A stretch of DNA of 48,868 nt from UHGV virus genome UHGV-0171424; one strand, written 5' to 3'. Source of the DNA: a virus. Every line of letters begins with the position of its first letter. Position 1 is the stretch's first letter. Below the pieces are notes generated by a model. It was not told the origin of the DNA. It saw nothing but the letters and a program-made list of their open reading frames with translations, and made no database searches. Both the position numbers and the translations under genes were made by a program. This document shows positions 1 through 48,868 of this stretch, piece after piece.

Positions 1-55
1 AGTAAATTCGCCACCCCGATATCTGTGGTATTTCGGGGTAAAATGAGGTATTGAC
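1..55 (+). repeat. 3' end of 301-bp direct repeat copy B (continues from 48623-48868 across the window junction)
   Basis: bases 1-55 are identical to 34827-34881; ends in TTGAC which forms the -35 of the downstream early promoter. Confidence 0.9.
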
Positions 56-82
56 CTGTAATTCTCTATTGTTTTATAGTAT
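51..82 (+). promoter_or_regulatory. sigma70-like early promoter (TTGACC -18- TATAGT)
   Basis: TTGACC at 51-56 and TATAGT at 75-80, followed by RBS GAAGGAGAGAAAC and ATG at 106. Confidence 0.5.
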
Positions 83-105: not shown

Positions 106-687
106 ATGATTCATCTTAGAGATAATTGTCACGGAACTACAAAATTTAAAGAAACAGAATTGTGCAGTATTTGTGCACTTCATGACCACCATGATTTTGT
201 GAAAGCGAAAAATATGGGTCTTCCTGCGCGTAATGAACTCTATCAGAAAGTTCTCAATGGTCTTAACGATGGTCGATTGTGGAGGGTACAGAAGAAACCA
301 AACAGCGAATGTGGACATCCGGGCGTCCGTAACACCGCTGGTAAATGTGTCTTCTGCTTGACCGAGCAACGCATGACGGGGGAATGGAAAAAACCAAAAC
401 CAGCCATTGTTAACACCGCTGGTGAGGTTGATGCACTGCGCGAGAATATCGCAATGATTGAGCGCAACATTACAGTATTGAATGAGCAGTTGCAGATGAT
501 GAAAAACGCCCTGTTACTGAGTGAATCAGGAATTCACGTTGGTGTTATTAAAATGAAATCACCGCGCCAGCAAGCCATCGCCGACGGCAAACGCTGGTAC
601 ATTCCGTATGAGCCTTGCAAGCATTGCAATATTATTGCAGAACGTTATGTAGCGAATGGTCGCTGTCGTAATTGCGGTGGTAAATAA
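106..687 (+). CDS. Cys-rich early protein (multiple CxxC pairs, putative Zn-binding), first gene after the early promoter
   Basis: 193-aa ORF with strong RBS; CxxC...CxxC pairs (CSIC, CVFC, CKHC, CRNC); followed by terminator. Confidence 0.6.
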   Translation: MIHLRDNCHGTTKFKETELCSICALHDHHDFVKAKNMGLPARNELYQKVLNGLNDGRLWRVQKKPNSECGHPGVRNTAGKCVFCLTEQRMTGEWKKPKPAIVNTAGEVDALRENIAMIERNITVLNEQLQMMKNALLLSESGIHVGVIKMKSPRQQAIADGKRWYIPYEPCKHCNIIAERYVANGRCRNCGGK

Positions 688-3098: not shown

Positions 3099-3127
3099 AA
3101 GATAACTCACCTTGACGATGTCGTCAA
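3099..3127 (-). promoter_or_regulatory. palindromic early promoter, minus strand (TTGACG-acat-CGTCAA, 17-nt spacer, TATCTT)
   Basis: perfect 16-bp palindrome at 3112-3127; -10-like TATCTT at 3099-3104 on the minus strand. Confidence 0.5.
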
Positions 3128-3158: not shown

Positions 3159-5476
3159 TATTTAGTTTCCGCAAAGGCTAACGCGCTTGTATCACCCTGT
3201 GCCGCCGCGTAATGGCGCGCCACGTCTGCTGCATTTGTGAGATTAGCGTGAATATGTCCAATCTTGATATATAACCGTGGCTTACCACCGTCAATCATTA
3301 TCACGTTGTTCACGCGCCCATCCTTGAGCGCCGGGTGCCAGTCGTAACCCAGTTGACGCATCATGTCGCGACGTTTACCCACCGGCACAGTACGGTCGGC
3401 GCGCATCTGGCGTAACAGGTTGTCCAGTGCCTTACTGCTCACCCAACCACCCGCAAAGCCCTGACGACCCTCGTCAATTGCTTCCATAATTTCCTGCTCA
3501 ACACTACCGAGTGATGCTGTCACAGCCTCGTGAGTGCTGCTGGTCTCTGGTGCACGCTGACAATGTGTCGCCGGGTTAAATTGTGCGGGAATGGCGTAGT
3601 TCTCCAGATAATGCGTTACGGCTGCAAATCCGCCACCACGTTTGAGCCAGTCATACAGGTTGGGGAAGTAATCGCCACCCATACCGTCACGTACAATGTC
3701 GATATGCTCCTGCTGTGCGGTATAGAAAATGGCGAACCGGCGGTCATTAGCTGTCTTGCGCACGGCGTTTTTGTGGTTACTATTGAACATGAAGTTAGCA
3801 CACAGGCGGTGCATCACCTGGTCCTGCTGCATCGCACGCTTAGCGAGGTACTCACCAGTAATCATCGGCTTGAGTGTTTCAATCAGTTCGAGTTTCTGCT
3901 CCGGAACGTAAATGTCTTCCACGCCGATAAATATTTTATCGAACAGCCAGGCGTTGAACTTCTCACCAATTTCCTGCGCTGGCGGCATGTGGCTGTAACG
4001 TGAACCGACCGCTTCCATTACGCACAATGTGAACAGTGTTTTACCGTTACCTTCGACGCCCTGCAGCAATGGTGCCCATTTAAATTTAGTTCCCTTGTAC
4101 TGGACGCACGCCGCCATGTAGGACAACAGAATGTCGCGGTCACGCTCGACGGGTAACAGTTTGGTCAGATGAGTGAGGAAAGGTGTCACATCGCCCGGGA
4201 CGCTCGCCACCGTCACCGGTACGTATGCGTTAACATGACGCAAACCGTCTTCCTCAATAATGGCACCCTGTGACAGGTCCGGACGGAATGTCGAGCGGTC
4301 AACTTTCGGGAACATGATGCACTGACTCCGTGTGAAGGCTTCGAAAGCAGACTTTGTTGTTTTTTCGTTACTGTCATCTAACGCGAAGGCATAACCACCG
4401 TACATAACGTCGAATTGTTCCGATTTCAGCATTTGACCATTTGGGGTTAATACACGATGACTATCGGCTACATATACGCAGCCTTTAAAATGGTCTAATA
4501 ATTGAGACCCACCAATGAACTGATAGCCGCTGCGGATAATTGGCGTATTAGATTCTACAACCTGCGCGGGGGTCACCAGTTCAATCGGTGCGCCGACGCT
4601 ATAATAGGTTGTGAGAAGCCCGGCAGCGTTGAGGATGGTGCGCTCCAGGTAAGATTTATTGGTGAACCATTTATCTCTTTTGAGTCCACTTTGTAGCATC
4701 AGCGATTTAGTTCTTTCGCAGTTCCCACCTGTCCACCATAAAAGTCGGGTGGCGAGAGATGAATCGAGTGATGAACGGTCGTCATCTTCCGATACCACGC
4801 CGTTCCACAGGTCTTTGAAAGTGGCCTTACCACCAAAAACAACAGAAACCCCTTCCTTAGCCGCACACGCTTTTTCGATGAGTTTCGCATCATCCTCAAT
4901 CGGGTTACTGCCCACCTGTGGCGAATTCGTCCATTTCACCGACACCGCGGATTCTTCTTTCGGGAAATAGCGTGCAATTACTGTATTTAGTGCTCCGGTG
5001 GCATCGTGTTCCCACGACCCTTGCGCACTTGAACCAGTCAAAGCGACAAATCTTTCGGTGTGGTATAACTCAATACCGAGCGGTATGTTTTTACAAGCGT
5101 GCTCAGGGATGGAAGAATATCGTCCGATGATGTGTAAACCGGTGCCACTCTGCGAAATTTCAACATAGCACCCGGCGAAAGTCTGACACAGTTCCACGGC
5201 CAACGGAGACCACGCTCCGTCAATTAGACAATGGTCGATATCGATGAAGAAATATGGGTCTGTATCTGTGAACACAAACCCAACTCCGTCTGCACCCCGT
5301 GCGAGTGCGTCACCATACGTCAACCAGTCATTCGGGTTGGTTGTGGAACCGTGGGGTCGCTTGGTTGTTTTGTCACCCACTTTAACGAGTGAGTAAGGAA
5401 TATACTGTTTTCTCTCTGTAATCATCATTTCAGTAACCTTAACCAGTATTGTAATTCTGTTGACCATCGCAACCAT
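3158..5476 (-). CDS. DNA primase-helicase (N-terminal prim-pol/D5_N-like primase, C-terminal SF3 helicase)
   Basis: 772 aa; prim-pol motifs DIDH and SGTGLH; Walker A GVEGNGKT; size and architecture match P4-alpha/D5-type primase-helicases. Confidence 0.8.
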   Translation of the reverse strand: MVAMVNRITILVKVTEMMITERKQYIPYSLVKVGDKTTKRPHGSTTNPNDWLTYGDALARGADGVGFVFTDTDPYFFIDIDHCLIDGAWSPLAVELCQTFAGCYVEISQSGTGLHIIGRYSSIPEHACKNIPLGIELYHTERFVALTGSSAQGSWEHDATGALNTVIARYFPKEESAVSVKWTNSPQVGSNPIEDDAKLIEKACAAKEGVSVVFGGKATFKDLWNGVVSEDDDRSSLDSSLATRLLWWTGGNCERTKSLMLQSGLKRDKWFTNKSYLERTILNAAGLLTTYYSVGAPIELVTPAQVVESNTPIIRSGYQFIGGSQLLDHFKGCVYVADSHRVLTPNGQMLKSEQFDVMYGGYAFALDDSNEKTTKSAFEAFTRSQCIMFPKVDRSTFRPDLSQGAIIEEDGLRHVNAYVPVTVASVPGDVTPFLTHLTKLLPVERDRDILLSYMAACVQYKGTKFKWAPLLQGVEGNGKTLFTLCVMEAVGSRYSHMPPAQEIGEKFNAWLFDKIFIGVEDIYVPEQKLELIETLKPMITGEYLAKRAMQQDQVMHRLCANFMFNSNHKNAVRKTANDRRFAIFYTAQQEHIDIVRDGMGGDYFPNLYDWLKRGGGFAAVTHYLENYAIPAQFNPATHCQRAPETSSTHEAVTASLGSVEQEIMEAIDEGRQGFAGGWVSSKALDNLLRQMRADRTVPVGKRRDMMRQLGYDWHPALKDGRVNNVIMIDGGKPRLYIKIGHIHANLTNAADVARHYAAAQGDTSALAFAETK

Positions 5477-6135: not shown

Positions 6136-6456
6136 TTACAGTAAATATTCGTTCACTGCTTTGACTCGAATCTCACGTGGGGCCGAATTTGCGATTTTGT
6201 CACCCAACGCAATGCCTTGTGCAATGATTCCCAGATTTTCCTCCTCCACTGCACGCTGCATGACAGCATCGCGTAACGCAGACATGACTCCCCAGTGATG
6301 GTTGATACTGCCCATTGCCACGCCAGCTTCGGCTGCTACACCATCGCGGGTAAGGGTACCAAAGCCATCGCGCTGCGCCATTGTAAACGCTACTTCTAAA
6401 ATATTATCTTTGCTCATAATTTCGGTTCCATCAGGTAATTTGTTGCAGTATGGCAC
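6136..6456 (-). CDS. small TetR-family-like HTH DNA-binding protein
   Basis: ILEVAFTMAQRDGFGTLTRDGVAAEAGVAMGSINHHWG matches the TetR N-terminal HTH signature (…AGVSKGTLYHHF); only about 100 aa; GTG start at 6456 or ATG at 6414. Confidence 0.45.
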   Translation of the reverse strand: MPYCNKLPDGTEIMSKDNILEVAFTMAQRDGFGTLTRDGVAAEAGVAMGSINHHWGVMSALRDAVMQRAVEEENLGIIAQGIALGDKIANSAPREIRVKAVNEYLL

Positions 6457-20442: not shown

Positions 20443-21210
20443 TTAAACTCCTATAAATCCGGTCGCTTGTGCCAATGAGTCACCAAACTGAGTTGATGAG
20501 TCACCTGCCTGTACATAATCATAAGCCTCAAGGAAACCATTGAATTTTACACCCTGCGGCTTCGGAACGAAAGAGGCATTGAGGAGCGCCCACCGTTCGA
20601 GGTCTGTGATTTGCCCGTAGAATTCCACGGAGAAACTCATGTCCTCACCGTCAACCAGACGAGTAACCTGTGCGTTAGGTAACAGGAAATTCACCCCATT
20701 AATAATGTCTTCAATGGTCGCGTATGAGTTGTTTTTAAGAATTTTAGATTTAATTGCCAGGCGATATAAGTTGTCCGACATTGCCATCGACTGGTCAACA
20801 GATGGCACACTACACATCGCAGAGGTGTCACCGAATTCAGCAGGACCATTAACATCGCTGGCGCACATCGCCGTTTCCATAGTGACTTCACCCATAAAAT
20901 CCCTGGGTATCACCACAATGCGCCCAATAACGTCTAGTTGCTCACCTTGCGCACCGTCGATCGAATACATAATACGGACAGCTGCAGCCACATCTGCAAT
21001 CTGCGTACCCAGACTACGCGTGATGTTATACCAAGCGGCAGCCTTTGGCTTGTTACGATACTGAGCGTAGATGCGATTTGGGGCATCTGACTCATTTGCG
21101 ACGTAGCCGCTGACAATCGTCAGCGGTACGAAGTAGGGGGCCGGGAAGAAGTTCATCAGTACCCACGGGAATTGATGGAAGATGTAGTAATGATACCGCG
21201 AATCTCTCAT
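20443..21210 (-). CDS. tail/baseplate-associated protein (gpI-like, putative)
   Basis: 255 aa; lies between the tail spike and distal fiber genes. Confidence 0.35.
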   Translation of the reverse strand: MRDSRYHYYIFHQFPWVLMNFFPAPYFVPLTIVSGYVANESDAPNRIYAQYRNKPKAAAWYNITRSLGTQIADVAAAVRIMYSIDGAQGEQLDVIGRIVVIPRDFMGEVTMETAMCASDVNGPAEFGDTSAMCSVPSVDQSMAMSDNLYRLAIKSKILKNNSYATIEDIINGVNFLLPNAQVTRLVDGEDMSFSVEFYGQITDLERWALLNASFVPKPQGVKFNGFLEAYDYVQAGDSSTQFGDSLAQATGFIGV

Positions 21211-21256
21211 TAGTCAATTCAGGTGCGTTGTGGACGGGTGAAAGGGGCTTACGCCC

Positions 21257-21442: not shown

Positions 21443-23449
21443 CTATGTGAAATTGATGATGAAATTATCGATATCAATCACCGCGCCTTCACGGCAGCGG
21501 ATAGATACTTCACAATATTCGGCGCCCTGTGGTACTCGACCCTGTATGAATTGTCCCACAGATTGCCACCCGCTCGGAGTATTAGTGAAAGAACTACTTG
21601 CACCCGATTGGATCGATTTGTCAGCCCTGTCGTAGAACGTAACGGTTAGTGCTCCCGCCGTCGTCCCTGTACCGGCGGTTATGGTATTGACTTGACACGT
21701 GGTCCTGTAATAACCATGTTGCGTTACTTTTACTTTTTGACTCAGGAAACAACTTGACGACTCGGACGATGTCATTCTCGCTCCATAGACACCTGTTTTC
21801 TTGTATTCCGTACCTACTACGCACGTTTGAGTGCTGACTCCCGTGCTGTTAAATGTCCACGATGATAAATCACCGGACTCGAAGCCGGGATTCAATGTTG
21901 GGTTTAGCGATTTATGAAGTGGGATATTCCCGGCACCAGAACGGATATCGCCGATACAATGACTCGCCGTAACATACCCGTTACCCTCAACAAAAGTTCT
22001 CAACCCTTCTTCCCCGTTCTGGAAGGGATAGTCATTCCCCGGCGTTTTAACGAGAGTGATGTCGATGAAGGCATTTTCCCCTACGTAGAATAACGGTTTC
22101 GTTTGCAGCGACGGGTTATTACACACAAGTGTACACCCATTAAGGATGAGTCGCGCCGCAATTCCCGTTACTTCTCCGTAGCGATACCACGCTGACGCCC
22201 CTGGATTTTCAATATTAGCCGCCGAATCCAAGATGACCATGGCACCATTCCCTGTTATCTTAATCGGGGTATTTAACACTGATGTACCAGGCATCCCAAT
22301 GGCAAAACTCGCACATTCCACAAGTATCGGACATCCTTTCATGTCGAATATTTTGCAATTTTGGAAAGTAATTGACTCTCCGGAGTCCGAAAGACCAGCT
22401 GGGAAGTGCATCGCATATGTGCCTCCGGTTGACTCCATCATGAACCCACAATTGATGAATTTATAACGCCAGGTACTATTGGAGCCCCCTAAAACGATGT
22501 CAGCAGTGGAAAACATGCAGTTTTCAATCTTACAGTCGCCATTATAGGTGCCGTTGCTGGAATTGTTATTGTTTCCGATTAACAGCAACTGCTGACCAAT
22601 GTTTTGGATCGCACCTTTGACTTTTATACCACGCATGGATGTACAGTGGTTGTCTGACCCAGCAGGATATGGGCGACTGGAATGAACCCATAAACAGTAA
22701 GGGGCAGTACAACCTGTAAAGTCAATATAGGCGATGCCATTGGGGCTCTCGAAAGAATAGTACCCTAAATCCACTTCCAAACCTTGCGACCCAGTTACAT
22801 AATAGGTTTTCCCCGCCTGTAACACCACATTGACTTTGTTGGACTTCGCATAAGATAGCGCCGACTGGAGCTGTTCTGTGTCAGTGCCTGGTAAATCCTC
22901 CGGCATTATAAACTTAGTTCTTCTGTTAAAAATCTCTATATAATTGTCAAGCCGAGTACCATCGGAATGGGTTACCAGCGAAGTACCGGGAATCGCGGAC
23001 GATGCCAGGTTTTGTCGCAGTAACTGATCCGTACGTGGCCTCCAGTTGACATCGGATAGTGGATCTGTGTCTGGGGGCACAACGTGTGGTAACGTACCCA
23101 CCCATGAATACCAGTTATTGTCCGCCGGGTTGTACACTGCTTTATTGCGGTCTGTAGTATCAAGTGTGCCACCGGTGCTGAAGTCGAAACTACTCGGTTC
23201 GAATGTCGAATTCATTAGCGCATCGATTGCTGATGCTGCCGATGCTGCGGCGTCAGCAGCCGAACTAGAAGCACTATTTGCACTATTAAGTGAATTCGTA
23301 GCACTGCCTGCAGCGGCTGTAGCTGAAGCCGATGCACTCGATACAGCCGCCGATGCGGCGGCTCTCAAATCATCAACTTGCCGGAAGTTATCATCCAGTT
23401 CGTCCCACGTTAAGGGTCGACCTAGGTCTGCACGTTTGATAATGGTCAT
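21443..23449 (-). CDS. tail spike / receptor-binding protein with beta-helix (pectate-lyase-like) domain
   Basis: 668 aa; N-terminus RADLGRPLTWDELDDNF typical of tail fiber/spike anchors; Ala/Ser-rich coiled segment; long beta-rich central domain. Confidence 0.6.
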   Translation of the reverse strand: MTIIKRADLGRPLTWDELDDNFRQVDDLRAAASAAVSSASASATAAAGSATNSLNSANSASSSAADAAASAASAIDALMNSTFEPSSFDFSTGGTLDTTDRNKAVYNPADNNWYSWVGTLPHVVPPDTDPLSDVNWRPRTDQLLRQNLASSAIPGTSLVTHSDGTRLDNYIEIFNRRTKFIMPEDLPGTDTEQLQSALSYAKSNKVNVVLQAGKTYYVTGSQGLEVDLGYYSFESPNGIAYIDFTGCTAPYCLWVHSSRPYPAGSDNHCTSMRGIKVKGAIQNIGQQLLLIGNNNNSSNGTYNGDCKIENCMFSTADIVLGGSNSTWRYKFINCGFMMESTGGTYAMHFPAGLSDSGESITFQNCKIFDMKGCPILVECASFAIGMPGTSVLNTPIKITGNGAMVILDSAANIENPGASAWYRYGEVTGIAARLILNGCTLVCNNPSLQTKPLFYVGENAFIDITLVKTPGNDYPFQNGEEGLRTFVEGNGYVTASHCIGDIRSGAGNIPLHKSLNPTLNPGFESGDLSSWTFNSTGVSTQTCVVGTEYKKTGVYGARMTSSESSSCFLSQKVKVTQHGYYRTTCQVNTITAGTGTTAGALTVTFYDRADKSIQSGASSSFTNTPSGWQSVGQFIQGRVPQGAEYCEVSIRCREGAVIDIDNFIINFT

Positions 23450-24994: not shown

Positions 24995-25668
24995 TAGTTA
25001 TTCGGCCCCGTATTAGAACCACCGGAAGCAACGCCGCCATGAGTGTGACCATTGAGTTCTTTACCATCCAGCACCAGAGAGTTCAGTGCGGTGATGTTCC
25101 CGTCTTTATCAATGGTCACACCATTGATACTCACTGTGCCGTTTGCAAGAAGTTGGACGTTGCCGTTCCCATTAGCCATTATGCACGAACCATCACCCTT
25201 TAACCAGACGTGCTGTGACGCGTCGGCATTGCGCAAGCGTATCCCATCGTTAGAAAAACTTGCAATCAGGTTATCAAGTGAACGGATTCCCGGTACAAAC
25301 ATTGCGTCCTGTTTGTGATGAAAGCGTTTGACGGGATTAGCAGCAATGCCGCCAGTCTGCTTCCATCCATCAATGCAACGTTGACTGAAATGTACCATAC
25401 CCTCACAACCCGGATTGACGGCGAATTCCAGTACGAAGTCATCGCCCGGAAAACTTACAGGAACGTCCACAATGGGTGGTGGGTCGAACGTAGTTTTAGC
25501 GACATCATCGGTCCGGGTGATTCCCAGTTGAATCTGCGCACGTTGGGTATCCGGGTCGAACGTCAGCACGTAACCCGGGATACACGTGTACACGTCCTTC
25601 ATGTTCTCGAAAAACGTGTCATTGGTGACGTTCTGTAAAAACGAGCGGCGCTGGTTAATGTCGGTCAT
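24994..25668 (-). CDS. baseplate central spike protein (P2 gpV / Mu gp45-like)
   Basis: C-terminal spike-like NGTVSINGVTIDKDGNITALN...GHTHGG; strong RBS AGGAGGG upstream of the ATG at 25668; the track start at 25710 is a GTG over-extension into the promoter. Confidence 0.6.
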   Translation of the reverse strand: MTDINQRRSFLQNVTNDTFFENMKDVYTCIPGYVLTFDPDTQRAQIQLGITRTDDVAKTTFDPPPIVDVPVSFPGDDFVLEFAVNPGCEGMVHFSQRCIDGWKQTGGIAANPVKRFHHKQDAMFVPGIRSLDNLIASFSNDGIRLRNADASQHVWLKGDGSCIMANGNGNVQLLANGTVSINGVTIDKDGNITALNSLVLDGKELNGHTHGGVASGGSNTGPNN

Positions 25669-25703
25669 GTCGCCCTCCTGTGAAAATAATGTCAAGTATA
25701 CTA

Positions 25704-25732
25704 TTGACACTCACGTCAAACAATGTAATTAT
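25704..25732 (+). promoter_or_regulatory. palindromic promoter (TTGACA-ctca-CGTCAA, N7, AATTAT) antisense within the baseplate operon
   Basis: TTGACA at 25704-25709, CGTCAA at 25714-25719; only instance with no downstream ORF. Confidence 0.5.
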
Positions 25733-33691: not shown

Positions 33692-34031
33692 AGCGGTCCA
33701 CGATTACCTTACAGTATTTACGCCACGGGCGATTGTCGGTGCGAATAACTTTCCAGCGCTGACCCAGGAACACCCATTCACCATCGAGTGCAATTGAGTC
33801 GAGGTCACCATTGTTAACGTATATTTTACGTGGGTCAACGATGCGCTGACCACCTTGTTGCAAGAAATCAAGTTCCTTGTCACTCAGTGGCTGAATGTTC
33901 ACCGTGAATGCAACTGGTGCGGATGTCACGGGTGTCCAGATACCGTCCACGTATGAGCCAGATTTACCCACATGTGTCGCCGGTACAGATTTAAACACGT
34001 TGTCAATATGACCACGCATTGACAGACTCAT
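33678..34031 (-). CDS. head-tail joining / neck protein (putative)
   Basis: 117-aa ORF, operonic overlaps on both sides. Confidence 0.35.
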   Translation of the reverse strand: MSLSMRGHIDNVFKSVPATHVGKSGSYVDGIWTPVTSAPVAFTVNIQPLSDKELDFLQQGGQRIVDPRKIYVNNGDLDSIALDGEWVFLGQRWKVIRTDNRPWRKYCKVIVDRYDQQ

Positions 34032-34531
34032 AAGATACCCTCATCAGGTTTTTCATTGGTGACCTTGTACGTTACGCTTGCACGTAGTGCGCCGGTGTCG
34101 ATAAGTGGATTGTCCGAACCTTTCTGTTCGATTGTGTAATCGCTGTTCGGTGGCGTGCGAAGGTCAGTCATGTACTGCTGCACCGCACCGACTGCGAATG
34201 CGCCCACTTGTTCAAGCACATGGTCAAGCGGTAAATCATTAGCCACGCCGTGAGCGATGGTGTCCACGATGTCCTGTTTACCACTTTGCACACCGGGTAT
34301 CAGCCAGGGGCGCGGCGGGATAGGTGCGGGATTGCCGTACAATTTGTTATTCGGGTTACCATAATTCAGCAATGCGCCAAGCTGGGCATTTGTCATACCG
34401 GAGTCAGGATGTTCACCTGCGTCCGAATGGATGCCGACAGTCACAGTCTTTTGACCGGCTTTAGTGTATTGCTCCAGTTTCGAACGTATTGCCTGTTTGG
34501 CTTGCTGTAGCGCTTTAATGTTGACTGACAT
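34028..34531 (-). CDS. virion morphogenesis protein (Mu G-like, putative); first gene of the tail operon
   Basis: 167 aa; ATGA overlap downstream; preceded by the late promoter. Confidence 0.4.
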   Translation of the reverse strand: MSVNIKALQQAKQAIRSKLEQYTKAGQKTVTVGIHSDAGEHPDSGMTNAQLGALLNYGNPNNKLYGNPAPIPPRPWLIPGVQSGKQDIVDTIAHGVANDLPLDHVLEQVGAFAVGAVQQYMTDLRTPPNSDYTIEQKGSDNPLIDTGALRASVTYKVTNEKPDEGIL

Positions 34532-34554: not shown

Positions 34555-34565
34555 ATTATCACACA
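34555..34565 (-). promoter_or_regulatory. late promoter for the tail operon: extended -10 (TGTGATAAT) 16 bp from the repeat boundary
   Basis: minus-strand TGTGATAAT about 25 nt upstream of RBS GAGGG and the ATG at 34531; no good -35, which suggests activator dependence. Confidence 0.45.
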
Positions 34566-34580
34566 ACGTTGCGCCAGTAT

Positions 34581-34881
34581 CCACACACCCCGTTGAAACT
34601 CGTTCGGGGTACTTCATCGGGGTATCAAAAACTCTTTAGTTTTCAGTACTATACTACTTATTACCCCTATACCCCTATAAAATAGTAATTAGTAGTAATA
34701 GAAAGTATATAATAAATAGTATAAATGTAATATAATACATAATGTATACTTTATAAGGTTTATAAGGGGGAAGAAGGGAAGAATGTACGGGGTGTTCGGT
34801 TATGCTCGTAAACCTATGATTATGAAAGTAAATTCGCCACCCCGATATCTGTGGTATTTCGGGGTAAAATGAGGTATTGAC
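34581..34881 (+). repeat. 301-bp direct repeat copy A (AT-rich, hairpin-containing)
   Basis: identical to 48623-48868 plus 1-55; starts CCACACACCCCGTTGAAACTCGTTCGGGG and ends GGTATTGAC. Confidence 0.95.
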
Positions 34882-34905
34882 GAATACGTCAACCACTGAT
34901 ACACT
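34877..34905 (+). promoter_or_regulatory. palindromic early promoter (TTGACG-aata-CGTCAA, N7, TACACT)
   Basis: TTGAC from the repeat end plus unique G; CGTCAA at 34887-34892; TACACT at 34900-34905. Confidence 0.55.
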
Positions 34906-34936: not shown

Positions 34937-35389
34937 GTGTCATTTGCATCTTATATTTTAAAAAAAATAAATTATGTCCCTGAAGAGGAAGTGAAGTCCG
35001 ATGAGAGTCGGGCGCGCCAACGTGAACACTCTGCATCTCATGACATTCCACAAGGTGTTGTACAGACATCGCGCGGACCAATGCGAATTACAAAAAGTGG
35101 AAAAATAGATGGCCGAAGTCTGGCACGAGGGAAACCCAAAAATTGGGACCGCGTGCCACGCGGAGTGAAATCGTATGAGCACATCATCCTTCGTGACATC
35201 TTTGAAAATGCGAAACCCGGTGAGGAATTTGCATGGGACTGGAGAACGGAAGCAACATATTCGGACATTAAGTTGCGAACCGCACAGTTGACATACGCAT
35301 ACAAAATCGCGGAGATATACGAACATAAGGTCTCGCTTTCCGCAAAACCAGGGTACATGGTGATTAAATATGTGGGCAATAAAGCATGA
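34937..35389 (+). CDS. basic early protein, hypothetical
   Basis: GTG start with strong RBS AGAGAGGGG; 150 aa; first gene after the repeat A promoter. Confidence 0.5.
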   Translation: MSFASYILKKINYVPEEEVKSDESRARQREHSASHDIPQGVVQTSRGPMRITKSGKIDGRSLARGKPKNWDRVPRGVKSYEHIILRDIFENAKPGEEFAWDWRTEATYSDIKLRTAQLTYAYKIAEIYEHKVSLSAKPGYMVIKYVGNKA

Positions 35390-35918
35390 GTCCGGAACAG
35401 TTTTATTTACAACGAAAGATAAATTTATCGCGCTTAACCGCGCACAACATGGCTGGAGAGTTGAAGAAGTGAGTGAAATGAACGTTTACCTGTCACGTCC
35501 TGGTGCACGTATTCCAACGTATGCAACGTCAGGAAGCGCGTGCTTCGATGTTTATGCTGCACTCGATAAACCAGTGCTAATTCGCAACGGTGAGCCTGTA
35601 ATCATTCCCACAGGGCTTAAATTTGATATACCAGTTGGACATGCTTTGATGATTTACTCACGCAGTGGTCACGGGTTTAACAGCGATGTCCGTCTGTCAA
35701 ATTGTACCGGCGTCATTGACAGTGACTACACTGGTGAATTGATGGTCAAGTTGACGCAGGATGTTGACCATCATGAAGGTGTGTTCTGGGTTAATCACGG
35801 TGACCGGATCGCACAGGGGGTGCTGATTCCGGTCGAACAAGTGACGTTTAAGCAAATCAGTGAACCACCTCAACAGAAAACTAACCGTCAGGGTGGTTTT
35901 GGGAGTACCGGAAGTTAA
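35370..35918 (+). CDS. dut: dUTPase
   Basis: motifs SRSGHG and GVIDSDYTGEL; true start may be the internal ATG at about 35478 (MNVYLSRPG...). Confidence 0.75.
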   Translation: MWAIKHESGTVLFTTKDKFIALNRAQHGWRVEEVSEMNVYLSRPGARIPTYATSGSACFDVYAALDKPVLIRNGEPVIIPTGLKFDIPVGHALMIYSRSGHGFNSDVRLSNCTGVIDSDYTGELMVKLTQDVDHHEGVFWVNHGDRIAQGVLIPVEQVTFKQISEPPQQKTNRQGGFGSTGS

Positions 35919-37344: not shown

Positions 37345-38736
37345 TTATTTTACCCACAACAGCTTGTCCTGTCCAGAATCGTAGATACGTGAGACACCTT
37401 CTGACTCATACCATTGCGTCTGTGTCATTCCATCCGGTGCGCGGTTCCACTTCTCACGTGATTCGGTTGTGCAACCATTTACAATCCTGAACCCCACTGT
37501 CGTGGTTGAAAGTGTGAAACCAGCATTAATATAACTGGAACCGCTGAACAAATCCCGGTCAACGTATGAATAGGCGCGGTTAATGTTGTTAACCGTGGTA
37601 GCATGTTTCCACAGGCGGGACAGTCCACCCGGGACATTACACGCAGTCGCATATCGTACCAGTTCCCATTCGTTCTTTTTCTGCCAGTTTGTCAGGCTGA
37701 TTACGGCGACTAAGGTATCATCGTGTTGCAGACCATAATGTACGGTCGCACCCCGGAAACCCTGTACGTGGTGTTTCTCCATGAACGCCTTCGCTTCAGA
37801 CGTCGAAACTTCCACAATGTTACATTTTCGGGCAAACACTTTGTCGGATACCACGCCAAGTGCGTTGCGAATGATATTTTCCACCTGTTCGCGGCGCTCA
37901 TTCCAGACATCCTCGCGAATGCTTATCAGACGATATCCTGCGGCTTCCACGCGGTGACGCTTGGTGATGTGATACTTCTTATCCTTCGTGCGCTCATCGT
38001 GCCAGTACAGACCGTTAAATTCTATTGCCAGATTGTGTGACGGCACTACAACATCGAGTTCCAGCGGTCCAATGATTGTACGGTCGGATTGTACCGCATC
38101 GGGACAAATGGAACGGACGAAGTTGAAGACTTCTGTTTCGGCTTTGGATACTCCGGAGTTGGAGCATTTTGGGCAACCAGACCCCTGCCTCACGTGAATA
38201 TCCGCTAGTTGTTCGAAATCTCCGTGCACTGGACAACGTATGGAGACTGTTTGGTCAATCCTCAAATAATTTGTATATGTGTAGTCGTATTTATCTCCGT
38301 GTTTGACTCTTGCTTTTTTCACCCATTCATCTTTTGACATTTTACCGCCACGATTACAGGCTGGACAACCTGAGCCACGTAGATGTACTTTGATACTCTG
38401 ATTAAACTCCCCATGATCGGGACATATTACCACCAGTGATTTTGCGTCTGCGACACGGTACTGATATCTACCGGAGTGTATCATCGTTGCTTTCTCTATT
38501 ACTTCATCAATTGGGGTGCTACGTTTAGAAGCAGAACGCTTGTCCCCACATTTGGGACAGCCGATTCCGGCGAGGTGGCTGTATGCTTTTTGGTGGAATA
38601 CTCCGTGTTCGGGACAGATTATCGACACTGTGTCATGTACTTTGTCGAAGGAGACACCAGAGTAATCATATTTACCATCGTGTTTCTGAGACGCTCTCTG
38701 CTTAAAAATATCAACCGTTACTCTAACTCGTTTCAC
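37345..38736 (-). CDS. homing-endonuclease-like protein: Zn-ribbon repeats plus Vsr/DUF559-like PD-(D/E)xK nuclease domain
   Basis: three repeats CP(E/D/V)HG.F.Q....HL.G.GCP.C; AIEFNGLYWHDE...ISIRE resembles the Vsr/DUF559 fold; GTG start at 38736 with RBS AAGAGGA; own promoter; the track start at 38793 is the -35 TTG. Confidence 0.55.
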   Translation of the reverse strand: MKRVRVTVDIFKQRASQKHDGKYDYSGVSFDKVHDTVSIICPEHGVFHQKAYSHLAGIGCPKCGDKRSASKRSTPIDEVIEKATMIHSGRYQYRVADAKSLVVICPDHGEFNQSIKVHLRGSGCPACNRGGKMSKDEWVKKARVKHGDKYDYTYTNYLRIDQTVSIRCPVHGDFEQLADIHVRQGSGCPKCSNSGVSKAETEVFNFVRSICPDAVQSDRTIIGPLELDVVVPSHNLAIEFNGLYWHDERTKDKKYHITKRHRVEAAGYRLISIREDVWNERREQVENIIRNALGVVSDKVFARKCNIVEVSTSEAKAFMEKHHVQGFRGATVHYGLQHDDTLVAVISLTNWQKKNEWELVRYATACNVPGGLSRLWKHATTVNNINRAYSYVDRDLFSGSSYINAGFTLSTTTVGFRIVNGCTTESREKWNRAPDGMTQTQWYESEGVSRIYDSGQDKLLWVK

Positions 38737-38764
38737 TGTGCAATCCTCTTTTGCGTTTGTACCG

Positions 38765-38793
38765 ATACTACATATTTTATATTCGTGTGTCAA
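38765..38793 (-). promoter_or_regulatory. sigma70 promoter (TTGACA -17- TAGTAT) for the endonuclease-like gene
   Basis: near-consensus hexamers on the minus strand immediately downstream of the capsid-gene terminator. Confidence 0.6.
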
Positions 38794-41553: not shown

Positions 41554-42012
41554 ATGACCACGTGGAACTACATCATCGGTAGTGAGAAGGACTTCGAAGG
41601 TGCGCCGGATTGGGCGAGTATGGTAATAAAATTCCAGGGGCAAACAATCTTTGAGGAACACGCTACTCCTCTACTGGGTATTAGTCGTTTTTCGATTGAA
41701 GGTGACAAGTCCGTCGAAGTTTGGGATGACGACACTGTATCTGGTGGAGCAATCATCGCCCAACGTGAACCCGTAGTAACCAATGACATGGTCAACCATC
41801 CGCCACACTACACACAAGGTGGTATTGAGTGTATCGATGCCATCAAAGCCGCCACAGTTGGTAAAACCGGTATCGAGGCGGTATGTGTGGCGAATGTCGT
41901 TAAATATCTGTGGCGCTACGAAGAGAAGAACGGCCTGGAAGATGTGAAAAAGGCCCGCTGGTATCTTGAGCGTCTGATTAGTGAACTGAACGGGGTGAAA
42001 GCAAATGAGTGA
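41554..42012 (+). CDS. DUF3310-family phage protein
   Basis: RBS GGAGGAGA upstream of the ATG at 41554; conserved NHPPHYTQGGIE motif typical of DUF3310. Confidence 0.55.
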   Translation: MTTWNYIIGSEKDFEGAPDWASMVIKFQGQTIFEEHATPLLGISRFSIEGDKSVEVWDDDTVSGGAIIAQREPVVTNDMVNHPPHYTQGGIECIDAIKAATVGKTGIEAVCVANVVKYLWRYEEKNGLEDVKKARWYLERLISELNGVKANE

Positions 42013-43802: not shown

Positions 43803-43839
43803 GTATGTGTTAGTTAAATATTATCACAGGAGATGAGAG

Positions 43840-44697
43840 ATGACATTACTTGAACTATTACGCCAGGAATTACCAAAACGTGGCGGTTGGCCGAAGGGTG
43901 CAGTAAAAGCTACCTCTTACGGTTTCATCCCGGGTGTTCATTTTTGGGATGATAACGATTTCGTGGTGGATTACAGCGACTTAACCACTCGCGCGTTAGG
44001 TGAAGAAAAAATCACACGCGAACAATACGAGGCAACTGGCTGGGACGGTACAGGTTTGCCGCCGGTGTCATACTTAAAATCAGTTCTAGATTATGATGAG
44101 GAAACCGGAGATTTCACGTGGAAACCTCGAATTGAAGGCGATTTTTCTACGAAATGTCAATTCGTATCTTGGTCAAACAGATTTGCAGGAAAGAAAGCTG
44201 GAACAATAGTCACCAAAAAGAGAAAATCATATCTGAAGATTAATTTAGGTGGTAAGAATTATTATGCACATCGAATAGCATACGCCATTTTGAACGATTG
44301 TTGGCCAGAAAATGAGATTGACCATATAAATGGGAATTCATTGGATAATTCAAAAACAAACTTGAGACAAGTTACAAGAAAGGAAAATTGTCGAAACGTG
44401 TCGTTAATCCCAAATTCAACTAGTGGTTATTGTGGTGTTAATTGGCATGAACCATCTGGTAAATGGCGAGCAAGAGTTAAAATCGACGGTAAAGAGAATT
44501 ATATTGGACTCTTCGACGACCCACAAGAAGCCGCAATTCGCATAAAAGCGATTAGAGACGCTGTCGGGTTCCATAAGAATCACGGTCAAGACCTCCGCTC
44601 AGAAGCGGAACGCGCGATTGATGAAATGGTTCGGCTGTCCGGAGTGTCAATTGGTGCGGCTAAGATTCTGTATGATGCGGGGTATCGGAAGGGTTAA
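43840..44697 (+). CDS. HNH homing endonuclease with AP2 DNA-binding domain
   Basis: HNH motif ENEIDHINGNSLDNSKTNLRQVTRKEN; AP2-like GYCGVNWHEPSGKWRARVKIDGKENYIGLFDDPQEAA. Confidence 0.7.
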   Translation: MTLLELLRQELPKRGGWPKGAVKATSYGFIPGVHFWDDNDFVVDYSDLTTRALGEEKITREQYEATGWDGTGLPPVSYLKSVLDYDEETGDFTWKPRIEGDFSTKCQFVSWSNRFAGKKAGTIVTKKRKSYLKINLGGKNYYAHRIAYAILNDCWPENEIDHINGNSLDNSKTNLRQVTRKENCRNVSLIPNSTSGYCGVNWHEPSGKWRARVKIDGKENYIGLFDDPQEAAIRIKAIRDAVGFHKNHGQDLRSEAERAIDEMVRLSGVSIGAAKILYDAGYRKG

Positions 44698-44756: not shown

Positions 44757-45377
44757 ATGACTAAACCAAAGCAAAAAGAAACTGAAACAGACAGCGAGTA
44801 TGCTCTTAGAATTTCAGAATGGAAAGAGATGCGAAAAGAGTACAAGAGAAAGTGGAATGAGCAGAATCGGTCACATACTTCCCAATACAACAAGAAATGG
44901 CAATCTGAGAACGTAGAAAAAGTTTCACGGTATAGAGAGGAGTATTACAAACAAAACAAACACGTCATTACTGAAAGGGTGATTGATTGGCAAAGAAAAA
45001 ATCCTGAGAAGTATGCCGATAAATCAAAAAGACATTATCTTGCCAACAAGGATAAGTTTGCAACCAGATTGGTCAAAAGAAGAGCGAACTTAATACAGGC
45101 CTCAATCGGTAAAGATGTGGAAAAAGTCTATTCGCAACTATACAGATATGCGAAGCTACTTGGCGGTAACCTCGAAGTAGACCACATCATTCCGTTGCAA
45201 GGCGTGGATGTCAGAGGGTTACATACCTCGGAAAATCTCTGTCTATTACCGAGAGAAATAAATCGTTCGAAAGGTAATAAATTTGACCAAGAAGCATACT
45301 TCTACTTCTTCAAAAGATACCCGAGATGTACCGCTTCGAGACTGTACGCGAGGTACATCTCGGGTAGATTAGGATAG
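44757..45377 (+). CDS. HNH endonuclease
   Basis: HNH motif LEVDHIIPLQGVDVRGLHTSENLCLLPREINRSKGNK; Lys-rich N-terminal region. Confidence 0.65.
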   Translation: MTKPKQKETETDSEYALRISEWKEMRKEYKRKWNEQNRSHTSQYNKKWQSENVEKVSRYREEYYKQNKHVITERVIDWQRKNPEKYADKSKRHYLANKDKFATRLVKRRANLIQASIGKDVEKVYSQLYRYAKLLGGNLEVDHIIPLQGVDVRGLHTSENLCLLPREINRSKGNKFDQEAYFYFFKRYPRCTASRLYARYISGRLG

Positions 45378-46766
45378 TTTTGCCATTATCTCATCATGAG
45401 ACAGACCATCTGTCACGTACTGGTTATAGCGTATCCAGAACGCATCCTGTTGTTCGGTGAGTTTTGGTTCATCGTCAGGGGGAGACGCAACGTAATCTGA
45501 CTCCGCCGAAGCCTGTTTATCTATTTCACCATCTTCAAACTGATATTCTTCGGATGATTCGAGATTGCGCATGATTTGTGATGGTCTCACTATCCCCTCC
45601 GCCAGATATGCCAAATCTTTATCAGCCCGGGTTTTGGCAGCTTGTGCAATCTGCAATTCATTAGGCTGTGCAAGTGGCCGCCACTCATAGTTAAAGTCGT
45701 CAGGCCAGTAACCCAAGGCGCTACGTACCAACACCTCATCGAGCTGGCGCAACCCCGGGTCAACCTGTGTCAGCTGTTTGGAGCGGATGGAGTTGTTGTA
45801 GTTGTTCATGTCCCCTTCGCCGGTGGCGTTCATGCCCTTAGCAGAGGTACCGAACAGGCGCGTAACGGGAATATCAGCCGCACCACTAATCCACGTCATG
45901 AACGTCTCAAGCACCGGTGCAACACCGCCCAGGTCGAGCGTCTTACGTTCGTATGACTCATCACCGTCCAGCAGGGCCATCTGCACCAGTGACTTCATCT
46001 GACTGAACAGTGTATAACGCGACACAATTGCATCATCCTGGTCACTGGCTAACTCGTCGGACAGTCCCTCACGTTTGACCACATCGACGTTTGCCTCCTG
46101 CATCAGTTCCGCGATGCCGTCCTTTGATGCGACCATGTCCATGATGTCATCGAGGCACACGCGTAACTCACTGTCACCCCATCCCTGCGTCTGGACCATC
46201 TGGCGACGAGGGATACGCTTGCCACTGAAACGCGCAAAATGGGTCCAGTGGATTTGCTGACCACCACCAGTAATGGTGTAATGCTCCGGCATCATGTAGT
46301 TAGGTGCCAGAATGTCCCAGGTGTTCAGGGTGAGCGGTGACATGTCGTAACGGTCAAACACGATGCAACGTTTTAAATCACCTTTACGAATACGGCTCAC
46401 GTCGAGCGGCTTTGACAGGTCCTGACCAGTCAGCATGAGAATACCGCCGCCGCCGTACAGACGCGCCCATGTAACAGCCTCCTGCACGTTGGCAGCAACC
46501 ATCAGCCGGTCTTCTTCGATGCGGATGTCATCGGCTTCCTTGCACTTGATGGTGCGCCACTCACGGCACATATCTTCAGCGGGAATTTCCACAATTTGAC
46601 GGGCGAGCCAGTTAGTCTGGTAAGCCGCGTCGAGTTGTTGCCAGTTGGACAGCGCAGCATACTGGAACATATTGTGAGAGCGTTTCGCTTTCCACGTTCC
46701 GAGGCCAGACACGACGTTGACCAGCCCGTCGGTGGTGTGAAGGTTTGTTTTAGCAGCCTTAGCCAT
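45369..46766 (-). CDS. portal protein
   Basis: 465 aa; immediately downstream of TerL with ATGA overlap; size and position typical of Mu-like portals. Confidence 0.7.
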   Translation of the reverse strand: MAKAAKTNLHTTDGLVNVVSGLGTWKAKRSHNMFQYAALSNWQQLDAAYQTNWLARQIVEIPAEDMCREWRTIKCKEADDIRIEEDRLMVAANVQEAVTWARLYGGGGILMLTGQDLSKPLDVSRIRKGDLKRCIVFDRYDMSPLTLNTWDILAPNYMMPEHYTITGGGQQIHWTHFARFSGKRIPRRQMVQTQGWGDSELRVCLDDIMDMVASKDGIAELMQEANVDVVKREGLSDELASDQDDAIVSRYTLFSQMKSLVQMALLDGDESYERKTLDLGGVAPVLETFMTWISGAADIPVTRLFGTSAKGMNATGEGDMNNYNNSIRSKQLTQVDPGLRQLDEVLVRSALGYWPDDFNYEWRPLAQPNELQIAQAAKTRADKDLAYLAEGIVRPSQIMRNLESSEEYQFEDGEIDKQASAESDYVASPPDDEPKLTEQQDAFWIRYNQYVTDGLSHDEIMAKLS

Positions 46767-46768
46767 GT

Positions 46769-48196
46769 TTATAAAATCTCCGACGCTGTTCGGCGTGCGA
46801 GTAATCCGCGACTATTGGCAATGATAAACGAATCCGCGATGTTTGGCGACATGATGTCTCGTTTTGCCAAATCTTTTTTACTTTCAACCTTGACTTTACC
46901 ACTATTGTCGAAGTCCCGCATTGGTGTAGACAACTCGTCGATGAGTTTGTCCAACAGTTTTGCATCGATATCACTTGACAAGCTAATCATCTGGTCAACC
47001 GGAAACTCCCGACCCTTTGTGACAGCCAGGTACGTATTGCGGAACCGGTCAGCAGTGAGCCACCATGTCTGTGCTTTCAGATTGGCAAAGAAATCTTCAT
47101 TGTTGATGCGGGTATCGCCGTATTTCTTTTTCGGGTCGGACACTTTGCCGCCCGCATTGAATTTGAAGTGTCTGTGCCATCCTGCGGCGTTCAGGTGCGA
47201 ACCTGTGCCAGCGCCCACCCCGATACTGTCGTAACCAATGTGGGACGCTCCAGCGCGTTCTGCGGTAAGTTTGACACGCATCGCTGACTCACGCAGTTCA
47301 TCCTCGCCACCTTTCCACTCATCCAGTCCAATACACACGCTGCCGTCCATCGTGGTCGATGCGTTTTTATCATCGCCAGAGTCAGCAACGTCGTAACCAA
47401 CAGTTTTACCGCCGAACCAGTTGCCGCCAACTTTCTTGTGAGCATCGATAGCGGCCTGAAGCCAGGAACGCTTGATAACCACACGGTCATCATTGTCACG
47501 TGGTACGCCAAGGTAAATATGCTGGTATTCTTCGAAATCTTCGGCCTTGGCTGATTCAATGTCGGCCAGAGCTGTGGCAGACAGAAATGGATTCTCGTTG
47601 TAATTAATTAAACGAGTAATAGTTCCGGCGGGCGGATTTAATACAAGACGCTTATATGCGAAATCAGTCGCAAGACGCGGGTTAAATGTGACCCATATTT
47701 CAGCATCTTCGTTACGCATAATTGTTGGACGAATTGTGGCAAACATATCTTCCGTTAAATTATGTGCCTCTTCAATCCACGCCACGGATGCTTTTTCAAA
47801 TGATTTAATTTCGTCAATATTGCGGGCCATACCGTAAAAACGAAATAATGAACCATTAGTTTTATGCTCAATAGCATCTGCATAAACTTTAAAATTCTTG
47901 TCCAGTCCGAAATAACTGATTTTATCTTTCAGGAGTGTATATACCGAATCAGCGATACGGTTCTGGTACATGCGTAAACACAGGAAACGCTGCTCCATAA
48001 AATTGGCGCGCGCTATGGCCACGCCTGCGGCATCGTGAGACTTCGACGACATACGACCGCCGTACAGCGTGCGAAAGCGTACACGCTGCCCATCAGGCGC
48101 TGTACGCGTTTTCCAGAAGTCCCGCAGTGCCGGGTTAAGCGTTGGATTAGTCACCGTAGAAATCGTCCAGTGTTTTGCGGATATCCACTTCACCAC
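46769..48196 (-). CDS. terL: terminase large subunit
   Basis: 475 aa; N-terminal ATPase Walker A-like YGGRMSSKS; size and gene order TerS-TerL-portal. Confidence 0.75.
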   Translation of the reverse strand: MVKWISAKHWTISTVTNPTLNPALRDFWKTRTAPDGQRVRFRTLYGGRMSSKSHDAAGVAIARANFMEQRFLCLRMYQNRIADSVYTLLKDKISYFGLDKNFKVYADAIEHKTNGSLFRFYGMARNIDEIKSFEKASVAWIEEAHNLTEDMFATIRPTIMRNEDAEIWVTFNPRLATDFAYKRLVLNPPAGTITRLINYNENPFLSATALADIESAKAEDFEEYQHIYLGVPRDNDDRVVIKRSWLQAAIDAHKKVGGNWFGGKTVGYDVADSGDDKNASTTMDGSVCIGLDEWKGGEDELRESAMRVKLTAERAGASHIGYDSIGVGAGTGSHLNAAGWHRHFKFNAGGKVSDPKKKYGDTRINNEDFFANLKAQTWWLTADRFRNTYLAVTKGREFPVDQMISLSSDIDAKLLDKLIDELSTPMRDFDNSGKVKVESKKDLAKRDIMSPNIADSFIIANSRGLLARRTASEIL

Positions 48197-48563
48197 TCAG
48201 TTCGATGAGTTGCTTATCCAGTCCCAGGAGTTTCGCCTTACCCATCGTCGCACCAGTCGCGGCAGACGCTTGCACAGTGTCGGCGGTCAGAGCGGCAATG
48301 CGCGCCTCTTCCAGCTCGGCAATGAGTGAATCAACTGTCACATTATGACGCTTGATATGTCCTTCACGCAGTTGACCAATTCTACGGTTAACATTGGGCT
48401 TATCGAGCAGACGTGATGCGTCCACAGCGATAGTGTTCGCATTCTTACGGTCGGACTTGTAAGCCTGACGATAAGCCTCGGATGCGTTCCCCGTCTCAAC
48501 GAAGACGCGGCAGAATTTCTCCTGCTGTTCGGTAACGCCGAATTCGTTAAGTGGTCTTGCCAT
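48147..48563 (-). CDS. terS: terminase small subunit
   Basis: about 138 aa, helical DNA-binding N-terminus (QQEKFCRVFVETGNASEAYRQA); overlaps the TerL start; ATG at 48563 preferred over the GTG at 48575. Confidence 0.6.
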   Translation of the reverse strand: MARPLNEFGVTEQQEKFCRVFVETGNASEAYRQAYKSDRKNANTIAVDASRLLDKPNVNRRIGQLREGHIKRHNVTVDSLIAELEEARIAALTADTVQASAATGATMGKAKLLGLDKQLIELSGEVDIRKTLDDFYGD

Positions 48564-48596
48564 GATAGTCCCCACGTTATTGTCTCTAATGCCACG

Positions 48597-48622: not shown

Positions 48623-48868
48623 CCACACACCCCGTTGAAACTCGTTCGGGGTACTTCATCGGGGTATCAAAAACTCTTTAGTTTTCAGTACTATACTACT
48701 TATTACCCCTATACCCCTATAAAATAGTAATTAGTAGTAATAGAAAGTATATAATAAATAGTATAAATGTAATATAATACATAATGTATACTTTATAAGG
48801 TTTATAAGGGGGAAGAAGGGAAGAATGTACGGGGTGTTCGGTTATGCTCGTAAACCTATGATTATGAA
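48623..48868 (+). repeat. 301-bp direct repeat copy B (5' 246 bp; the last 55 bp are at window positions 1-55)
   Basis: identical to 34581-34826; continuity across the window end and start shows a circular or permuted representation. Confidence 0.95.

Follow-up and report, generated by a model that had tools for sequence, protein, structure and literature searches.

At the early/late switch of phage phi29 (promoters A2c/A2b and A3; proteins p4 and p6), a single factor acts as repressor of the early promoters and as activator of the late one. The late promoters of P2 and P4 are served by the zinc-finger proteins Ogr and Delta at a dyad (TGT-N12-ACA) near position -55, and those of Mu by the C protein. 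Repeated cassettes of regulatory DNA have been described in T4-like phages, where promoter early stem-loop (PeSL) cassettes mediate modular shuffling (PMC2839356, PMC4122927). The virus genome UHGV-0171424, a stretch of 48,868 nucleotides (nt) that was analysed as a whole (hereafter the window), comes from a Klebsiella myophage in the JD001/KpV52 group of the genus Jedunavirus; it is complete, closes into a circle, and carries two copies, A and B, of a 301-base-pair (bp) intergenic repeat. We give about even credence to the reading that the pair represents a duplicated control cassette of ~300 bp for two divergent promoter pairs, which is conserved in the genera Jedunavirus and Peatvirus.

The two copies (coordinates in Table 1) are separated by 14,042 nt on the closed map. 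A direct comparison found them identical at 301 of 301 positions, which bears out the two perfect direct repeats reported in the first-pass annotation, with the caveat that short-read assemblers may erase one or two real differences between near-identical repeats, so that "perfect" could mean "nearly perfect". The identity ends sharply, with no additional matching nucleotide on either side and the first outside base already different. The guanine-plus-cytosine (GC) content of the repeat is 35%, compared with 48.7% genome-wide, and falls to 23% in its inner 130 nt. Copy B spans the ends of the window, which represents a closed circular map because relatives have terS and the gene of a conserved 193-amino-acid protein as neighbours across the same element.

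The first base of the window falls at offset 247 of the repeat, and several contigs in IMG/VR (11.5-35.6 kb) also appear to stop within ~25-160 nt of the conserved pattern, distances that were judged from the position of the match in the locus where the locus is only part of a contig. A repeat of 300 bp evidently breaks short-read assemblies.

Related phages retain both copies. The 301-bp query matched 160 places in 71 related phage records, with two to three places in each listed record (three where the record start splits one copy) and, hence, at least two in 71/71. In all of the 12 relatives that were compared as whole genomes, anchored on the neck and terS genes, the copies are located at the same two loci, upstream of the neck/tail-completion gene and upstream of terS. 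The Pectobacterium phage PEAT2, which belongs to the sister genus Peatvirus, has the element at both loci. A terminal redundancy, against which the first-pass annotation had already argued, is rejected because 14 kb separates the copies and both are internal where a record starts elsewhere (positions 9450 and 22984 in JD001). An assembly artefact is likewise rejected, because the pair is present in 71 of 71 related records, with identities between copies A and B that range from 55% to 100%.

The repeat is apparently previously undescribed. A literature search found no description of it; the paper on the phiPLPE group reported only GC-rich tandem repeats (PMC3391216), and one Jedunavirus paper that employed Tandem Repeats Finder found no repeats (PMC10276810). 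A conserved 22-base pattern from the element had no match in 185,579 bacterial and archaeal genomes. In the distantly related Vibrio phage 1.186.O, there is no pair of 300 bp, only a late-promoter-like repeat of 57 nt. Its ~57-nt motif (…TTATACTGTGA-N6-TCACA…GGAG) occurs at positions 5083-5139, 21159-21215, 22624-22673, and 25388-25444 of that genome, upstream of head-morphogenesis, head-completion/neck, tail-completion, and tail genes, and probably represents the late-promoter motif of this phage.

The two copies evolve in concert. Among 11 non-redundant genomes, copies A and B of the same genome share a mean identity of 85.4%, whereas the means between genomes are 75.7% (A-A), 77.3% (B-B), and 76.6% (A-B), a within-genome excess with a permutation p of 0.0009. 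The pair is identical in the window and in JustaPhage (100% over 301 nt), in 1611E-K2-1 (100% over 289 nt), and in pKp383 (100% over 233 nt), and almost so in JD001 (95.8% over 285 nt) and KpV52 (95%); the other genomes range from 55% to 88%. Three genomes with identical pairs differ from each other by 8-19%. When each copy was matched to its nearest foreign copy, the locus was the same in only 10 of 22 cases. Because this count and the similar A-A, B-B, and A-B identities between genomes leave no room for a locus-specific lineage, the comparison shows A and B to behave as a single exchanging pool of sequence, which is maintained by gene conversion and by recombination between phages. An ancient duplication with independent evolution at each locus is rejected by the same equality of identities.

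The ongoing gene conversion postulated in the first-pass annotation is therefore well supported. The alternative offered there, that perfect identity implies strong constraint, did not hold, because relatives tolerate A-B identities of 55-96% and core indels of 12 and 41 nt; in light of the concerted evolution of the pair, the perfect identity in the window reflects recent gene conversion. Since the repeat of the window is closest to copy B of JD001 (95%) and not to any A copy, and is generally nearer to B copies, copy A was probably overwritten by B-type sequence (B to A). The homology stops exactly where the locus-specific, conserved promoter flanks start. Excision by recombination between the two copies is plausible. 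A different kind of repetition is found in pKp383, where three segments of ~300 nt with a mutual identity of 96-100% lie in a run of small genes of the plus-strand unit (45090-47737 of that genome); this array is a local paralogous expansion and is absent from the window.

The anatomy of the element was derived from an alignment of 35 distinct copies in combination with footprinting, that is, by sequence comparison. The repeat contains eight GGGT(A/G) boxes (starting at positions 34586, 34607, 34620, 34662, 34670, 34790, 34838, and 34862 in copy A), whereas only 1.4 are expected from the genome-wide density (P ~9e-5), and 12 of the 35 CGGGGT sites in the genome fall within the two copies. The invariant or near-invariant columns of the alignment coincide with the box cores, and conserved blocks flank a variable core. 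Four of the boxes form two dyads, and dyads of this kind (ACCCYG-N-CRGGGT) are absent elsewhere in the genome. No indel alters the spacing from the terminal boxes to the neighbouring promoter elements, whereas the AT-rich core carries indels. Copy B of PEAT2 is down to ~55% identity, yet it has kept the ACCCC boxes and the terminal TTGAC.

Both arms of the element have alternative versions. A left arm of ~100 nt (CCACAATAAAGCCACAG...; CCACAATAAAGCCACAGAATGCGGG...), which starts from the same CCACA boundary, is located at locus A in pKp383 (~41880-41990) and at locus B in MEW1 (~38350-38450); the left dyad is replaced by another arm in these two copies and in three IMG/VR copies. On the right, several A copies and a single B copy have an alternative arm (GTTTTCGGGTAATCGTTCACTTTTTGATCGG...), which is present as a tandem duplicate in MEW1 copy A. 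Judged by the distribution of these arms, the cassette is modular and moves between loci.

The first-pass annotation had described the repeat as hairpin-bearing, but the hairpins show no covariation in the 35 distinct copies. In the helices, 85% of the alignment cells pair, as they likewise do in shuffled controls, and the single two-sided change occurs in two related copies. The lack of covariation indicates that the dyads are conserved as sequence and not as base-paired structure. Folding of either strand is ordinary (z-scores of -1.5 and -1.3 relative to shuffled sequences), and Rfam yielded no match at E <= 1. A terminator scan found none inside the element, where the dyads have loops of 12-15 nt and lack a T-run; the only terminator-like hairpin is a flanking TGAC palindrome at 34876-34893.

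Each end of the repeat adjoins a promoter-like site. The left end is 17 nt from the TG of locus-specific extended -10 elements (TGTGATAAT and TGGTAAAAT), which are conserved in relatives, and their -35 positions are poor (TGGATA, GTGGCA); in the flank of copy B, only the "n" of the TGn varies among relatives. The right end coincides exactly with a TTGAC -35 element, and AAAAT-rich DNA lies upstream of the rightward sites at both right ends. Assuming a transcription start ~7 nt past the -10 element, the centre of the left dyad is located at about -50 from the leftward extended -10 site at both loci and in most relatives. These results agree with the first-pass annotation, which had placed leftward extended -10 elements near the boundary, had assigned the TTGAC of the rightward sites to the other end of the repeat, and had located each copy where a leftward late operon and a rightward early unit begin. 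The repeat fills the gap between outward-facing promoter-like sites heading the packaging/head and neck/tail operons. The depositors of KpV52 independently annotated one promoter in each direction inside the element.

The reading as a control cassette is preferred because position, boundaries, fixed promoter spacing, and box conservation all fit it, and because the RNA and coding alternatives failed (see below). Each copy is placed between a leftward extended -10 promoter-like site that would serve virion genes and a rightward sigma70-type promoter-like site with TTGAC that would serve a short, probably early unit; one cassette stands ahead of the packaging/head operon, which begins with terS, and the other ahead of the neck/tail operon. 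A putative protein of the phage or its host may bind the GGGT(A/G) boxes in the terminal dyads and at the internal sites, and the AT-rich core is probably easily bent or melted. The bound factor would set the outward promoters alike at both loci, so that the packaging/head and neck/tail genes would be switched together.

The gene that reads away from copy B encodes a candidate for the box-binding factor, and nothing more than a candidate. Its 193-amino-acid product has three zinc-ribbon motifs (CxxC/CxH) and a central coiled coil, and its AlphaFold model is confident, with a predicted local distance difference test score (pLDDT) of 87.6. The family comprises 35 clusters and is confined to ~48-kb contigs of this phage group; the first zinc ribbon is missing in some relatives.

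Several points weigh against a control cassette of this kind. All promoter-like sites are matches of consensus scans and not mapped transcription starts. The cassette stands ahead of only two of at least five candidate late promoters and is therefore not a general late-promoter element; for instance, TGTGATAAT recurs at 43828, upstream of a head-morphogenesis gene, as a candidate late promoter without the cassette. The alternative left arm of pKp383 copy A and MEW1 copy B supplants the left dyad and shifts the other boxes away from the -10 element, and these phages are viable. No binding protein was found; the 193-amino-acid protein has no relative in Pfam, NCBIfam, or the PDB and no match to Ogr_Delta, and the fold matches of its model in the PDB are coiled coils only. 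Finally, boxes around an AT-rich core are equally the anatomy of a replication origin. Of the shared late-activator-binding or UP-like module proposed in the first-pass annotation, the geometry stands; the cassette is not a general requirement of late promoters, most boxes are moved away from the -10 element by the alternative left arm, and no activator was identified.

Replication origins that combine iterons with AT-rich DNA are known from lambda (ori-lambda) and P1 (oriR), and promoter-linked origins from T7 and T4; in the replication system of the T7 type, to which that of the present phage is related, the origins consist of a promoter and AT-rich DNA. By analogy, the GGGT(A/G) boxes of the repeat could be initiator iterons and the 23%-GC core an unwinding element, with activating transcription possibly provided by the flanking promoters, which would give the phage two origins. 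The eight short boxes, which occur in both orientations, and the 130-nt core that they surround would suit this function, and the phage has its own primase-helicase, DNA polymerase, and gp2.5-like single-stranded DNA-binding protein. A near-consensus DnaA box (GTATCCACA, 34577-34585) on the boundary of copy A points in the same direction, but it is absent from copy B. No initiator gene lies beside either copy. The cumulative GC skew, which is a weak indicator here because it largely tracks transcription, has its minimum at ~10.6 kb in the region of divergent replication genes and does not turn at 34.7 or 48.7 kb, so that the possible origin suggested in the first-pass annotation receives no positive support from it. 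An origin would also leave unexplained why, in both genera, the element is found precisely at the 5' end of each of the two virion operons. We regard this reading as unlikely.

The DnaA-like sequence fits the DnaA-box consensus TTATCCACA at 8/9 positions. It spans the left edge of copy A, and A copies share it; the equivalent position of copy B has ATTGCCACA, with 6/9.

Control and replication could also be combined. The cassettes might then be dual enhancer/origin elements, a phage counterpart of the homologous regions of baculoviruses. A phage protein dedicated to the GGGT(A/G) boxes, for which the triple zinc-ribbon/coiled-coil protein next to copy B is a possible candidate, would assemble on both copies, co-activate both operons, and perhaps prime replication, and the phage would use gene conversion to keep the copies matched because one factor has to read both. 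We regard this proposal as decidedly unlikely.

A further alternative is a recombination-prone "linker" of the PeSL type that carries only ordinary promoters, is spread and homogenised by homologous recombination, and has its main effect in the shuffling of modules and cargo between phages. It is in line with the full interchangeability of the copies at the two loci, with the occurrence of the alternative left arm at locus A in one phage and locus B in another, and with the hypervariable cargo that follows copy A on its right, where relatives have a dUTPase, a methyltransferase, an HNH nuclease, or a DNA-binding protein. Identity to cmc20193 drops stepwise from ~99.6% to ~91% across each copy, which seemed to favour a linker, but a profile of identity in 1-kb steps revealed fine mosaicism throughout the genomes, so that the steps at the repeat edges are not special. 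On the same grounds, a clean swap of the repeat-bounded 14-kb head module, which had looked likely from the steps, is rejected. A mere linker would have to account for box cores that are invariant next to a variable core across two genera, even in the diverged copy B of PEAT2, a block pattern that indicates selection on the sequence itself, and for a copy number of only two, always at the same loci. We regard it as an improbable explanation.

In the headful packaging sites (pac) of SPP1 and P1, binding sites of the small terminase subunit flank the cleavage region. If the boxes had the same role here, copy B, which adjoins terS, would be the pac site and copy A a second or relic site. The clusters of boxes on either side of an AT-rich centre do recall the pac site of P1, and the terminase is of the Terminase_3/Terminase_2 type. 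No fixed termini were found by the authors of the IME346 study, which is consistent with headful packaging (PMC9007800). Nonetheless, a pac site is very improbable, as the second copy lies 14 kb away by the neck gene and is conserved in all relatives without an obvious packaging role, and as terS is highly divergent (63-99% amino acid identity among genomes) whereas the boxes are the same.

There is hardly any prospect that the element encodes a small RNA or a micro-peptide in two gene copies. Hairpins could arise from local inverted repeats, small open reading frames (ORFs) are annotated in the region in some RefSeq records, and a 29-codon ORF (34783-34872) has a start codon and first ~20 codons (MYGVFGYARK...) that are conserved in almost all copies. 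However, the length of this ORF is unstable, ranging from 9 to 43 codons; its substitutions are not biased towards third positions (15/12/18 by codon position), and copies with the second core type have not kept its Shine-Dalgarno-like run. A continuous ORF across the core is ruled out by the 41-nt indel that SBP copy A has there. The 29-codon ORF (MYGVFGYARKPMIMKVNSPPRYLWYFGVK) has its equivalent in copy B at 48825-46, across the junction of the map.

Table 1. Features of the two repeat copies and of their surroundings in the window (positions in the 48,868-nt stretch)
Feature	Position	Strand	Remarks
Copy A, 301-bp cassette	34581..34881		Between leftward neck/tail operon and rightward variable accessory unit; exact repeat; same locus in 12/12 fully read relatives
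Copy B, first 246 nt	48623..48868		Directly upstream of terS; runs on at 1-55 over the circular junction
Copy B, last 55 nt	1..55		Terminates in the TTGAC -35 of a rightward promoter-like site
Left dyad ACCCCG-N12-CGGGGT (two GGGT(A/G) boxes)	34587..34610; copy B 48629-48652		Conserved in 27-30 of 35 copies; no covariation
Box CGGGGTATC	34618..34626	+	GGGT core invariant in 35/35 aligned copies
AT-rich core, 23% GC	34641..34770		Inner part most variable: two sequence types, 12- and 41-nt indels among relatives
Tandem boxes TTACCCC-TATACCCC	34661..34676	-	GGGTA on minus strand; followed by highly conserved block TATAAAATAGTAATTAGTA
Box ACGGGGTG	34787..34794	+	Inside near-invariant block AATGTACGGGGTnTTCGGTTATGC
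Right dyad ACCCCG-N15-CGGGGT	34839..34865; copy B 13-39		Fixed distance to TTGAC -35 (no indel in TTGAC-bearing copies)
Leftward promoter-like site, neck/tail operon	34583->34555	-	TGGATA-17-(TG)GATAAT; -10 locus-specific; -35 position straddles repeat boundary; flank conserved in relatives
Leftward promoter-like site, terS-terL-portal operon	48626->48597	-	GTGGCA-18-(TG)TAAAAT; flank conserved
Rightward promoter-like site, right of copy A	34877-34905	+	TTGACG-17-TACACT; last 5 nt of repeat are its TTGAC
Rightward promoter-like site, 193-amino-acid zinc-ribbon gene	51-80	+	TTGACC-18-TATAGT
Tail-completion/Neck1 gene	34028..34531	-	First gene of leftward neck/tail operon; phrog_222, E 1e-44; left of copy A
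Accessory unit: ORF of 150 amino acids and dUTPase	34937..35918	+	Right of copy A, reads away from it
terS, terL, portal	45369-48575	-	Left of copy B
terS	48147..48575 (probable ATG 48563)	-	First gene of leftward packaging operon; phrog_51, PF03592
Gene of conserved 193-amino-acid protein	106..687	+	Right of copy B, reads away from it

The genes on both sides of the copies were identified by PHROG and Pfam scans, which confirmed the gene context given at first pass for both loci (Table 1). Among relatives, the slot that follows copy A on the right is hypervariable: in place of the accessory unit of the window, KpV52 and JustaPhage have a DNA/RNA-binding protein, PEAT2 a cytosine methyltransferase, SBP a dUTPase together with a methyltransferase and an HNH nuclease, and JD001 small ORFs. 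The region of the head genes is broken up by an HNH endonuclease gene (43840-44697, plus strand) and by an ORF of the size of a Hef-like homing endonuclease (37345-38793, minus strand); the presence of both differs between relatives.

A second family of sites is distributed over the whole genome. The palindrome TGAC-N6-GTCA occurs sixteen times, compared with 0.75 occurrences expected by chance, at positions 3113, 5580, 6461, 7815, 10615, 10672, 13531, 14711, 17139, 25705, 30682, 34878, 41480, 42615, 43775, and 48606. Most of these palindromes have the form tTGACG-N4-CGTCA, are intergenic, and are followed by a -10-like hexamer 17 nt past the TTGACG. One borders copy A, where the terminal TTGAC of the repeat is half of the palindrome at 34878-34891, and another is only 2 nt from the left end of copy B. 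The set looks like the main promoter/operator family of the phage. A plausible candidate for the protein that binds it is encoded on the minus strand at 6136-6456 of the window: this protein of 106 amino acids has little beyond a TetR-type helix-turn-helix domain (NCBIfam, E 1e-7) and is kept in relatives, whose annotations call it a TetR regulator.

Extended -10-like motifs (TGTGATAAT and TGTGAAAAT) are present at 34555-34563, 43820-43828, and 25679-25687; they are found repeatedly ahead of virion genes (neck, head morphogenesis) in the absence of the 301-bp cassette. The copy at 25679 is on the plus strand and does not face the leftward baseplate gene at 25710, which has an upstream motif of its own (TGTGAATAA). 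In general, late switching in this phage might depend on promoters that need no -35 element.

Jedunaviruses are a widely isolated group of candidate phages for the therapy of Klebsiella infections. The cassette and the 16-member family of TGAC palindromes provide a first concrete map of likely control sites. The pair also represents a clean natural case of concerted evolution of a non-coding element in a lytic phage genome of 49 kb, which could be used to measure rates of intragenomic conversion. For those who engineer these phages, the repeat is of concern as a potential deletion hotspot.

Among the systems described so far, the PeSL cassettes are the closest, and the element is likewise a repeated phage regulatory cassette that evolves in concert. 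Both are intergenic and repeated, and in both a sigma70-like promoter is combined with inverted repeats and with AT-rich DNA upstream. They also adjoin variable accessory genes and serve as crossover points for recombination within and between phages, and circles could in principle be looped out between such direct repeats. However, PeSLs are short, occur in dozens of copies, are restricted to hyperplastic regions, and have stem-loops that are terminators, whereas the Jedunavirus element comprises exactly two copies of 300 bp at the fixed heads of virion operons, with eight boxes and no internal terminator stem-loop. The sixteen TGAC-N6-GTCA palindromes, with a stem-loop that overlaps the -35 element, are more PeSL-like than the 301-bp element itself.

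Other systems share single traits. The late promoters of P2 and Mu resemble the leftward sites in having a weak or absent -35 element, a good -10 element, and, by analogy, an upstream N12 dyad near -50 and an adjoining gene for a zinc-ribbon protein. They differ in having their site at every late promoter, whereas the cassette precedes two of at least five candidates and its dyad is missing at one locus in some relatives; the protein adjoining copy B does not match Ogr_Delta. Iteron origins likewise have several short boxes that flank a strongly AT-rich segment with promoters nearby, but the present element differs from them in its two copies at operon heads, the lack of an adjacent initiator gene and of a skew signal, and the irregular orientation and spacing of its boxes.

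The homologous regions (hrs) of baculoviruses are tandem arrays of ~30-bp palindromes at many loci, which bind IE-1 and function as enhancers and candidate origins. As dispersed, near-identical, AT-rich repeats with palindromic protein-binding sites and concerted evolution, they are comparable to the pair described here, although they belong to a eukaryotic virus and occupy many loci; the likeness is one of analogy only. The switch region of phi29 resembles the cassette: it extends over a few hundred bp, is flanked by early and late promoters that diverge, and contains several inverted-repeat protein-binding sites and bendable AT-rich DNA. It is a single region with a known binding protein, whereas the region considered here is duplicated and has no sequence similarity to it. 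In terms of function, the phi29 switch region and the baculovirus hrs may be regarded as the nearest analogies to the duplicated cassette of Jedunavirus.

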